Virus record (IMG/VR): IMGVR_UViG_3300036841_000070
Location: 1 to 60,041 of that record
Reading direction: 5' to 3' (one strand)
Length of the DNA stretch: 60,041 nucleotides
DNA from: a virus
Taxonomy: Duplodnaviria; Caudoviricetes
The notes under the pieces were generated by a model. It ran no database searches. It had not been told where the DNA came from and saw only the letters and a list, made by a program, of their open reading frames with translations. Position numbers and translations under genes: made by a program. Of the stretch, positions 5,198-6,407 are shown one piece after another (within the stretch, counting starts at the first letter, position 1; every line of letters begins with the position of its first letter).

Positions 5198-5314
5198 AGG
5201 TGGCGTGGCAACGGTTGCGCGGACGCAAGTGTTCTGGCCGCGCACGTGGTTCGCATGGCGCACGCTGGTGCGTGATGCGCACGCCGGTGAGGTGTGCGTC
5301 GGGCGCTTGCTGCG

Positions 5315-5475
5315 CTAGCGCTTGCTAGCCTGACGTGTAGCTAGCACCCCTAGCCGGTCGGCTAGTCTTTTCGTGTCGTGTTGCTAGACGGTCGGCTAGG
5401 TTTGCGGGTGAAGTGCCTAGACGTAGGGCTAGGATTCGGGCCGCTAGCGTTGCGAAGCGATGCGAAGCGCGCTAG
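5315..5475. repeat. CTAG cluster (11 copies in 161 bp)
   Basis: CTAG at 5315, 5325, 5341, 5350, 5362, 5384, 5396, 5417, 5429, 5444, 5472. Confidence 0.8.
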
Positions 5476-5478
5476 GCT
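5450..5478 (+). promoter_or_regulatory. Sigma70/SigA-like rightward promoter
   Basis: TTGCGA-17 bp-TAGGCT upstream of GGAGG RBS and ATG 5523. Confidence 0.65.
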
Positions 5479-5522
5479 TGCTGCGAAGCAGCGAAACGGT
5501 CGCTGCCGAACCGGAGGTTCCG

Positions 5523-6110
5523 ATGCCCCGCAAGACCCGCAAGTCCCCCGCCCCGCCCGCCCCGCTCTCGCTCGACGAGCGCCGCGATGCCGCGATTGCC
5601 GCGCTCCCCTTCGCTCCCGACCGGGAGCCGACCGACCCCCGCAACTTCGACTCGCTCCCGGAGGACGTGCAGGTCGCAATCGTCGCGGAGATGCTGCTCG
5701 ACTTCCGCGTCCGCAAGATCGGCGGGGACGCGATGCGCGGCAAGTATGCCGGAGCGTCGGAAGCGCATAAGCACGGTCGCGGCCTAACCGGCCCGCGCCG
5801 CCGCGCGATCTTCGAGCAGTTCGGCAAGCGCGCGGAGGGCGTCGGCAAGTCCTACGTCGCCTTCCGCTCCGGCGCTCCCCGCGTCGGCACGAACGCGAAG
5901 GGCGAGGGCGAGGGCGCGGCCCGCCGCGCTGCCGACGCGATGCGAGAGCTAGCGGACGCGAAGGTCACCGCGCTCGACGCGAAGGGGTGCCGCGCGCTGC
6001 TCCGCTCGCTCGACGCGGACGCGAAGGTGCCGACCGTCCGCAAGGGCGACGAGAGCGCGCTGCGGGCCGCGACCGTCGCGGCCGTGCTCGCGTCCGGGAG
6101 CGTCGCCTAG
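5523..6110 (+). CDS. Hypothetical Ala/Arg-rich protein in motif-depleted cassette
   Basis: GGAGG RBS, own promoter and terminator, strong third-position GC bias; no recognisable family. Confidence 0.75.
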   Translation: MPRKTRKSPAPPAPLSLDERRDAAIAALPFAPDREPTDPRNFDSLPEDVQVAIVAEMLLDFRVRKIGGDAMRGKYAGASEAHKHGRGLTGPRRRAIFEQFGKRAEGVGKSYVAFRSGAPRVGTNAKGEGEGAARRAADAMRELADAKVTALDAKGCRALLRSLDADAKVPTVRKGDESALRAATVAAVLASGSVA

Positions 6111-6212
6111 CGGCCGCTAGCGGCCCGCTAGCGCCCCCGCGCTAGCTCTCCCCGTCCGTTCGCATCCCGATCCGGAGCGGAACGAGCGGAGGGCGAGCGT
6201 AGAGGGGCGCGA

Positions 6213-6262
6213 GGGGCGCGAGAGAGGGCGAGCTAGCCGCCCCTCTCGCGCCCCTTTTCTTT
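6213..6262 (+). terminator. Rho-independent terminator
   Basis: GGGGCGCGAGAG(A)GGGCG / CGCCCCTCTCGCGCCCC stem followed by TTTTCTTT. Confidence 0.8.
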
Positions 6263-6407
6263 GCCCGCCGGGGCTGAGCTGATCCCTCTCAATATTTCCT
6301 GAGGGATAGGTGTGTTGACGTGAAACTCCCGCGCACGCGCGAGCACGCCCGCGCCTCTGTCAGATGAAAATGTTGCACCCCCAAAGAAAATCGGCTAGGC
6401 TACCTTT

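Follow-up and report, generated by a model that had tools for sequence, protein, structure and literature searches.

A phage gene cassette free of CCA and TGG on both strands, its purged relatives, and an unpurged homologue

The T7 gene 0.3 region is an instance of recognition-site avoidance in a first-injected, early region, and the lambdoid-phage literature describes morons as autonomous units within phage genomes that have their own promoter, gene, and terminator and deviate in composition. Here we set against these and other described systems a gene cassette at positions 5267 to 6380 of IMG/VR record IMGVR_UViG_3300036841_000070, a tailed phage (Duplodnaviria; Caudoviricetes); the whole 60,041-bp stretch is called the window. 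In Streptomyces, Ssp writes phosphorothioate (PT) at CCA (C-ps-CA, by SspABCD), and the nickase SspE is described as "generally presumed" to recognize CCA (PMC9646914). Related PT systems are reported to accept ACTC, CCTC, and TCTC, i.e., H (not G) at the first place (PMC12914056). For some phages, as described for Murciavirus and Mme2I, the location of a motif in the first-injected region decides Type I restriction (PMC12455610). Plasmid leading regions are reported to be GC-rich, with anti-restriction genes that are codon-adapted (PMC13478746), and the TAGT-type systems documented in PMC8256090 act at GpC (GpC[C/T]), some of them leaving GpCA untouched.

A first-pass annotation, made from the sequence of the window, had described a self-contained cassette without CCA or TGG from 5269 to 6380. 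The elements that we find at and next to it are as follows.

5043..5266, no strand assigned: hairpin array TGTTGC-N4-GCAACA with GCGCAC..TGG repeats; CCA/TGG at 76 per kb in the last 250 bp, 0 from 5267
5267..6380, no strand assigned: CCA/TGG-free zone (tier 1), 70% GC; zero CCA and zero TGG, both strands
5412..6274, no strand assigned: core zone (tier 2), promoter to terminator; TG is TGC in 22/22, CA is GCA in 16/17
5315..5475, no strand assigned: 11 CTAG-containing motifs (GCTAGC and GGCTAGG types), with the near-repeat CTAG(C/A)CGGTCGGCTAG at 5350 and 5384
5450..5478, plus strand: candidate promoter TTGCGA (5450-5455)-17-TAGGCT (5473-5478), a weak sigma-70 match
5488..5506, plus strand: hairpin in the 5′ untranslated region (UTR), 7-bp stem, loop AACGG, just 5′ of the Shine-Dalgarno (SD) sequence
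5513..5517, plus strand: SD sequence GGAGG, 5 nt 5′ of the ATG
5523..6110, plus strand: 195-aa open reading frame (ORF), Trp-free, Ala/Arg-rich, GC content at third codon positions (GC3) 0.93, unnamed family
6107..6146, no strand assigned: CTAGC(GG) array of 4 motifs from the stop codon; CTAG at 6107, 6117, 6128, and 6142 (spacing, 10, 11, and 14 bp)
6203..6263, plus strand: intrinsic terminator, a long GC stem followed by UUUUCUUU; −48.8 kcal/mol (6195-6272), with 0/200 shuffles folding as well

The zone without CCA and TGG is exactly 5267 to 6380, bounded by a TGG that starts at 5266 and a CCA that starts at 6381. The genome holds 2,136 copies of the two words (35.6 per kb), and the purge proved stronger than had been noted: the cassette is the longest CCA/TGG-free run of the genome (1,115 bp), and the runner-up is 321 bp. 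Mononucleotide shuffles of 5269 to 6380 gave a mean of 40.8 copies against 0 observed, and dinucleotide-preserving shuffles gave 17.6 ± 3.5 (minimum, 5) and reached zero in 0 of 2,000, making the depletion significant against composition-matched sequence. The core zone was also as annotated, with its lone exception a TCA at 5965. We counted HCA/TGD words, i.e., every CA or TG step outside GCA/TGC, in 300-bp sliding windows across the genome; the cassette held 0 to 1, versus a genome mean of 28.8 (standard deviation, 5.5), and six other 300-bp windows with a GC content of ≥0.68 held 24 to 31 each. The cassette is the sole GC island of the genome (72% GC, versus 56.6% overall) and the single word-desert island within the 60-kb record.

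The purge has two tiers. CCA and TGG are missing from ~160 to 250 bp 5′ of the ATG to the terminator, and the zone in the window runs 120 bp further; the other HCA/TGD words are missing only from about the promoter to the terminator, with TGA and TGT present in the window's outer flanks. In all three purged lineages (described below), the extent of the zone is that of the regulatory region plus the transcription unit. Just upstream (211 to 250 bp), CCA/TGG stand at 68 to 95 per kb, a 2- to 3-fold enrichment, which makes the drop to zero abrupt, with borders that are sharp to within a few bases. Independent Logan contigs from two soil runs not marked as a possible source of the record span 5108 to 6473 and 4222 to 6311 with 0 differences, which indicates that the cassette junctions are real. 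With both borders bridged by these contigs and synteny of the cassette in other records, an assembly chimera was rejected.

Codon usage was addressed by permuting synonymous codons among positions, which changes neither the protein nor the codon usage of the ORF in question. For the ORFs of the window and of two homologous loci, L003 and L004, 14.7, 12.3, and 13.0 TGD+HCA words were expected, respectively, and 1, 0, and 0 were observed; 0 of 5,000 permutations were as low in each of the 3 ORFs. Sense-strand TGG was expected 3.8, 3.9, and 2.2 times in the same order and sense-strand CCA 6.1, 3.8, and 6.2 times; both were observed 0 times, and 15, 12, and 181 of 3,000 permutations were as low for TGG and 1, 4, and 1 of 3,000 for CCA. 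TGA, TCA, TGT, and ACA together were expected ~13.9 times over the three ORFs and were observed once. The noncoding flank (1,211 bp) contains zero TGG and zero CCA. Chance, composition, and codon bias were thus rejected by the shuffles and synonymous permutations, in line with the first-pass annotation, which had argued against codon bias from the inclusion of noncoding DNA and from other highly biased genes. The highly biased gene that it had used for comparison, labeled a major capsid protein (MCP) at 52656 to 53273, lies in an ORF with HNH-endonuclease matches; the comparison itself held, in that genes with a GC3 of 0.74 to 0.80 carry 33 to 37 CCA+TGG per kb. Because both strands, the three ORFs, and the noncoding flank are purged, the constraint is on double-stranded DNA words, within codons and at their junctions.

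Pooled over the three cassettes and both strands, CCA/TGG occurred 0 times versus 50.5 expected under a first-order Markov model. Observed/expected ratios were 0.43 for TCA/TGA, 0.48 for CAG/CTG, and 0.54 for ACA/TGT, and GCA/TGC was enriched (1.94). After the CA/TG words were set aside, none of the 4-mers was further depleted that might have pointed to a longer hidden motif, and the depleted 4-mers are all CA/TG words rather than the classical 4- to 8-bp restriction sites. The avoided unit is a trinucleotide: CCA/TGG absolutely, then all CA/TG outside GCA/TGC. Of the two explanations in the first-pass annotation, evasion of restriction or BREX-type targets fits as target avoidance in general, but the unit is a trinucleotide and not a 4- to 8-bp site of the restriction-modification (RM) or BREX type.

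The sample of DNA consists of three purged lineages and one unpurged lineage; the phage and its relatives are soil metagenome records, linearized at different places, and several of the cross-locus motif comparisons below were made by eye. In all four lineages the cassette gene is in the same place, after AT-rich iterons, a hairpin array, and TGG-rich repeats. The following genes flank it in the window.

4521..4991, minus strand: HNH endonuclease gene, between two copies of an AT-rich iteron block (3958-4085 and 4902-5075)
6408..7061, plus strand: putative small terminase (terS), assigned by position only (overlaps the TerL start); no family match
7045..8604, plus strand: large terminase (TerL)

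terS and TerL follow the cassette in the window, L003, and L004, and the L010 contig stops just past the cassette. L003 has an 815-bp CCA/TGG-free zone with TG as TGC in 23/26 and CA as GCA in 21/21; its TerL is 78% identical and its cassette protein 39%. L004, L005, and L007 represent one lineage with a 976-bp free zone, in which TGC accounts for 31/31 and GCA for 38-39/41-42, and with a cassette protein 48 to 49% identical to that of the window. In G001, a complete relative, the free run of 976 bp compares with 256 bp for the next, and the cassette is the only island of ≥70% GC. The purge that had been proposed from the window alone is thus shared by syntenic cassettes in two other lineages.

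The fourth lineage, L010 (record G002, 79% complete), provides an unpurged homologue. Its syntenic cassette is 75% GC, its protein is 59% identical to that of L003, and it shares the upstream iterons, −10-like box, 5′-UTR hairpin, and terminator with the purged cassettes. CCA/TGG nevertheless occur at 33 per kb (versus 0) and CAG/CTG at 38.6 per kb (versus 7 to 8 in the purged cassettes), and TCA and ACA are ordinary. G002, too, has a single island of ≥70% GC, namely, the cassette, which holds 12 to 14 CCA/TGG per 400 bp. We therefore rejected the purge as a by-product of the family's GC-rich coding: L010 is equally GC-rich, yet has normal CCA/TGG, so GC richness and purge are separable and family membership is not enough. 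L010 groups with the purged L003 (clade support, 95/93), and its protein is still without Trp, for which reason secondary relaxation in L010 would be the simplest reading. A comparison of gene content between the purged G000 and G001 and the unpurged G002 found no nuclease or methyltransferase specific to the purged phages; the differences from G002 include a MazG-like gene and an ORF with a weak helix-turn-helix (HTH) match. A scan of bacterial genome contigs with A2 found no relative, and a scan of viral contigs with P0008 found no further DNA loci.

The protein sequences of the family bear the corresponding pattern. A word-seeded search of metagenomes found 5 relatives of the 195-aa product beyond the window's own cluster, and a profile search found 43 cluster representatives (E ≤ 0.001) among 1.8 billion. 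Trp is absent (0) from the window ORF, the L003 ORF, and P0002 to P0006, and in the same sequences Met is followed by P, R, H, or L in 19/19 cases (12 internal), versus a background of 0.28 for L/P/H/Q/R; P, R, H, and L have codons able to start with C. In a maximum-likelihood tree of 44 members, rows without Trp and without an ill-followed internal Met make up 24 of the 26 rows of one side, and 0 of 500 label shuffles were as clustered. By eye, distant members have W (e.g., GSWLTGP) where the purged clade has R or G.

The arginines and the dinucleotide composition are the points at which a purely mutational origin deserves attention. On this account, a local context-dependent repair or conversion bias from TpG/CpA to CpG would erode TG and CA with no selection involved. 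The cassettes do show CpG excess (rho, 1.37 to 1.48) with deficits of CA (0.37 to 0.47) and TG (0.57 to 0.82); in the Arg-rich proteins, W→R and Q/H→R would each take a single step; tier 2 has the same extent as the transcribed unit; and a drive from TpG and CpA to CpG by T:G glycosylase is published for CpG islands (PMC4041421). Against these stand the totality of the absence (0 versus 50.5 expected), its sharp borders and strand symmetry, and the sparing and even enrichment of TGC/GCA alongside strong protein conservation. The unpurged L010 has an equally high GC content and a similar density of CpG (168 per kb, versus 174 to 201 in the purged cassettes), and the lost CA/TG were replaced equally by GA/TC and by CG. 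We know of no mechanism by which such a drive would be restricted to 1 kb within a phage, and we regard a mutational origin as rather improbable.

The reading that we favor, at somewhat less than an even chance, is that selection acts against a trinucleotide target in the DNA, with CCA as its core and HCA/TGD as its wider form, and so leaves this gene untouched and expressible. By purifying selection, words of double-stranded DNA with a CCA/TGG core would be kept out of the cassette, and a DNA-acting factor that reads a short motif would then be unable to touch this one gene. The factor might be a host defense that nicks, marks, or deaminates DNA, an Ssp-type system (motif CCA) being a concrete candidate. 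The gene would stay transcribable while other DNA of the chromosome (~35 sites per kb) was attacked or marked, and the extreme GC3 (0.93, versus 0.50 to 0.80 in 26 other genes) would fit fast, high expression. We infer selection rather than mutation as the cause, a defense or nuclease as the agent, an antidote or early protein as the product, and whatever concerns timing or entry. Because the motif occurs at ~35 per kb elsewhere, local immunity makes sense only with a reversible lesion (a nick or mark) or an early-acting gene.

Several observations weigh against this reading. The motif abounds elsewhere in the genome, where double-strand breaks by such an agent would be lethal to the phage in any case. 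No defense or nuclease that reads HCA/TGD was identified. The product has no similarity to any anti-defense or other named family and no fold match in the databases searched. The ~1.9-fold enrichment of GCA/TGC could mean positive selection for these words rather than avoidance of the others alone. CTAGCGG or GCATGC arrays are further features of the purged cassettes for which the explanation has no need. Early expression and first entry of the cassette are presumed. Finally, the promoter is weak: the TTGCGA-17-TAGGCT that the first-pass annotation had named is present as sequence, but it is a weak match to the sigma-70 consensus, and a consensus scan of 4900 to 6500 called 0 promoters.

A more specific form of selection against a CCA target is that the cassette is a "nick-proof antidote gene" encoding an inhibitor of an Ssp-type short-motif nicking defense (CCA core, relaxed to HCA), which we consider doubtful. 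The promoter, coding region, and terminator, purged on both strands, would let transcription persist during reversible nicking, and the L010 lineage would have moved to hosts without that defense and lost the purge. The link of Ssp to the cassette would be one of analogy. We reserve about a tenth of the probability for an explanation outside all those discussed here.

The product itself has resisted placement. No match was found in Pfam, PHROGs, NCBIfam, or PADLOC, and a sequence profile search of the PDB gave no relative. A first AlphaFold (AF2) model was poor (pLDDT, 65), and Foldseek with it returned nothing; AF2 with the 44-sequence alignment gave a confident all-helical model (pLDDT, 89.9; pTM, 0.59) for which Foldseek against the PDB and BFVD found no match at an E value of ≤0.001. 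A search of the ESM Atlas gave no usable match. The route to the product that the first-pass annotation had suggested, structure prediction and search, thus ended in a confident model with no fold match in the PDB or BFVD. The distant members P0036, P0013, P0014, P0024, and P0025 have Ala/Lys/Arg-rich tails (by eye), and the C terminus of P0036 is extended by a long Cys/His/Trp-rich stretch, nuclease-like in appearance (by eye). The tails and the P0036 extension suggest that the family core may be a nucleic-acid-binding module.

Such a module would be of interest for a second explanation, in which the cassette is insulated from DNA-handling proteins of the phage itself. Sites with a CCA/TGG core would be recognized by one of these, for instance the replication initiator or primase-helicase, the terminase or HNH protein, or the cassette's own putative DNA-binding product; the sites would be concentrated in the upstream hairpins and repeats, and the cassette would be kept free of them so as not to be bound, primed, cut, or silenced. 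The sharp fall from enriched CCA/TGG directly upstream to 0 is as expected from this idea. So are the ordered hairpins and repeats that adjoin the primase-helicase, HNH, and terminase genes, the palindromic GCTAGC or GCATGC arrays that flank the purged ORFs, and the tails and single Cys/His-rich extension just described. However, with a normal 35 CCA/TGG per kb elsewhere, such a protein would bind everywhere, and in L010 the TGG-rich repeats (52 per kb) lie upstream of a cassette that is not purged. That the product may bind DNA is suggested by the sequences of distant members, and the fold search gave nothing. We consider insulation unlikely, if worth keeping in view.

The upstream elements themselves recur among the relatives. 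Ordered short hairpins are found upstream also in L003 (1 to 211) and L004 (5510 to 5823, GTCCATGGAC-type), with repeats of the forms GCGCAC..TGGT and ACTGGTYTGG, and the hairpin/repeat array is a candidate pac/cos or origin element. The two copies of the AT-rich iteron block in the window are ~944 to 990 bp apart and consist of units TGA(G/A)TGGAAAACA...AAACTGAT...TGCGC; comparable iterons precede the cassette in L004 and L010. The duplicated block may be a replication origin, or it may have arisen when the HNH gene inserted. A conserved GC-rich near-palindrome (CGCGCACGCGCG-like) stands between the terminator of the cassette and the putative terS in the window (6328 to 6356), L003 (~1125 to 1160), and L004 (~6845 to 6870); if it is a cos or pac site, the cassette would lie at an end of the packaged chromosome.

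The other proposal of the first-pass annotation was that the cassette lacks the contexts marked by the phage's own glycosylation system and so remains readable. A glycosyltransferase domain is present: the TAGT-family profile PF20691 matched with 38 bits (cutoff, 27.5), residues 4 to 95 of 270 aligning with profile positions 3 to 90 of 205. Phage hypermodification with di- or trinucleotide context is also documented (PMC8256090). The thymidylate-synthase-like gene, however, is an ordinary ThyX (Pfam Thy1; ThyX relatives in the PDB) and not of the hydroxymethylase family, and six-frame searches of the 60-kb record found no match to Tet_JBP (PF12851) or to C5-cytosine methyltransferase (PF00145) at an E value of ≤1. 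The unpurged G002 retains the glycosyltransferase, ThyX, and NT5C-like genes at 69 to 76% identity, and a GpC-type system would mark the GCA/TGC of the cassette, not spare them. These results weaken the proposal, and we now hold self-modification to be very unlikely. The genes concerned belong to a nucleotide-metabolism cluster on the minus strand (36914 to 39116 and 42559 to 43323) with ThyX, the TAGT-type glycosyltransferase, a MazG-like ORF, and an NT5C-like ORF; no TET, hydroxymethylase-type, or C5-methyltransferase partner was found in it, and G002 lacks the MazG-like ORF.

As a transcription unit, the cassette is autonomous and highly biased in GC content and codons; it has a −10-like box, 5′-UTR hairpin, SD sequence, ORF, and terminator, and in this the account of it as self-contained, with an SD sequence, a Trp-free 195-aa ORF, and a strong terminator stem, was borne out. 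The −10-like boxes align as TAGGCT (window), TATGCT (L004), TAAGCT (L010), and GATACT (L003), with TAnGCT in 3 of the 4 loci. Hairpins with GAACGG-type loops and differing stem sequences (compensatory changes) occupy the same place as the 5′-UTR hairpin in L004 (~5964 to 5982) and L010 (~5937 to 5957); the L003 counterpart was seen by eye only. The hairpin had no Rfam match and is likely a regulatory or stabilizing RNA element. A U-tract follows the terminator stem, and L003, L004, and L010 have homologous hairpins. CTAGC(GG)-type motifs, repeated every ~10 to 12 bp and beginning at the TAG stop, number three in L003 (863 to 890), L004 has CTAGCTAGCGG..GTAGC (6607 to 6625), and L010 has none; in place of the window's 11 upstream CTAG motifs, L004 has five GCATGC. 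These CTAGC(GG) and GCATGC arrays may be operator-like.

Three-base motifs are known for RNA interferases, and a last alternative places the avoidance at the RNA level, such that the mRNA would offer no cleavage motif to a sequence-specific endoribonuclease of the MazF-toxin kind. Tier 2 spans promoter to terminator, and the difference in L010 is mostly in sense-strand HCA (CCA 14, TCA 5, ACA 3, versus 0 to 1), both of which suit an RNA target. Both complementary word sets are missing, however, where no antisense transcript is known, and the CCA/TGG purge reaches 100 to 190 bp 5′ of the candidate promoter and beyond the terminator. An RNA-level cause is highly improbable.

The phage record is the whole IMG/VR entry (CheckV completeness, 100%; no end repeats). 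Replication genes lie on the minus strand (36 to 60 kb and 1.7 to 3.6 kb) and include DNA polymerase, SNF2 helicase, exonuclease, Sak4, ThyX, and primase-helicase. The plus strand carries the structural genes between 6.4 and 36 kb, among them TerL, portal, protease, major head protein, tape measure, and tail fibers. Two further assignments bear on the gene used for comparison above.

17279..18721, plus strand: major head protein (phrog_1650; E value, 8e-72)
52656..53783, minus strand: ORF with HNH-endonuclease matches, containing the stretch earlier labeled MCP

Two minus-strand ORFs (21714 to 23249, 511 aa; 20955 to 21506, 183 aa) sit within the plus-strand structural module; neither matched PHROGs or Pfam, and both are kept in G001 and G002 at 37 to 41% identity. 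No tRNAs were found, and Rfam gave chance hairpin matches only, all under gathering scores. No similar DNA or protein for the cassette region was found among GenBank phages. The terminases nearest to the phage TerL (37 to 42% identity) are those of Streptomyces phages, Arthrobacter phages, and one uncultured phage; the ends of Streptomyces phage Marky were inspected for an analogue and were uninformative.

Studies of motif avoidance usually deal with whole genomes and 4- to 8-bp sites, whereas the avoidance here concerns one gene unit and a three-letter word and is total and strand-symmetric. It is conserved across deep divergence and sets codon placement and amino acid sequence, and the unpurged homologue serves as a natural control. 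The cassette would thus be a clean and tractable signature of a trinucleotide-specific DNA-reading agent acting during infection, and it singles out an uncharacterized family (the 43 cluster representatives) as worth testing. If the principle holds, gene-sized word deserts could reveal early or anti-defense genes, and the motifs of opposing systems, without homology; if the cassette is indeed a nick-proof antidote gene, motif deserts mark anti-defense genes and reveal the recognition words of their targets.

Among the described systems, our literature searches, which covered site avoidance, leading regions, and dinucleotide islands, yielded no gene-sized, strand-symmetric trinucleotide purge that shapes a protein. 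The set of TET, C5-methyltransferase, and TAGT genes of hypermodification is represented in the phage by its glycosyltransferase, without TET/JBP or C5-methyltransferase. CpG islands, as described in PMC4041421, resemble the cassette in CpG excess, TpG/CpA deficit, and a GC-rich island around a promoter. The cassette differs in that its purge is total, sharp-bordered, spares TGC/GCA, and is missing in an equally GC-rich homologue, and in that it belongs to a phage. Plasmid leading regions are likewise GC-rich, codon-adapted DNA with genes needed at once on entry (PMC13478746, PMC11541004); in plasmids, short palindromes are reported not to be consistently depleted, whereas the main feature of the cassette is its motif purge. 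A recognizable anti-defense protein, as in early and leading-region modules, was not returned by our sequence and fold searches.

The cassette is like a moron in its strong terminator and deviant GC content (72% versus 56.6%), and it has a candidate promoter-like element of its own. It differs in that no insertion between genes adjacent in relatives was seen; the cassette is in all 4 lineages, and none was found without it. Since its composition has not drifted toward that of the phage despite deep divergence, it appears to be actively maintained. With phage site avoidance, as described for Murciavirus and Mme2I (PMC12455610), it shares a local stretch without a motif that is present elsewhere, so that location counts and not just the total. 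The unit in the cassette is instead a trinucleotide plus CA/TG outside GCA/TGC, on both strands, over one gene's regulatory and transcribed region; the purge is kept over 39 to 49% protein identity, removes Trp, and restricts the residue after Met.

The comparison with Ssp has both sides as well. The phage has so far no connection to ssp genes, a host, or PT data, and ACA/TCA as Ssp targets would be an extrapolation. According to PMC12914056, related PT systems tolerate any base except G at the first position, and this parallels the HCA of the cassette. Because Ssp damages DNA by nicking, the local immunity of one gene would be meaningful under it. Among the defense systems that our literature searches found, Ssp is the one with a three-letter motif (on one strand), as described in PMC9646914, that equals the cassette's avoided core: the word missing on both strands, with 0 CCA and 0 TGG over 815 to 1,115 bp in three lineages, is the Ssp motif.

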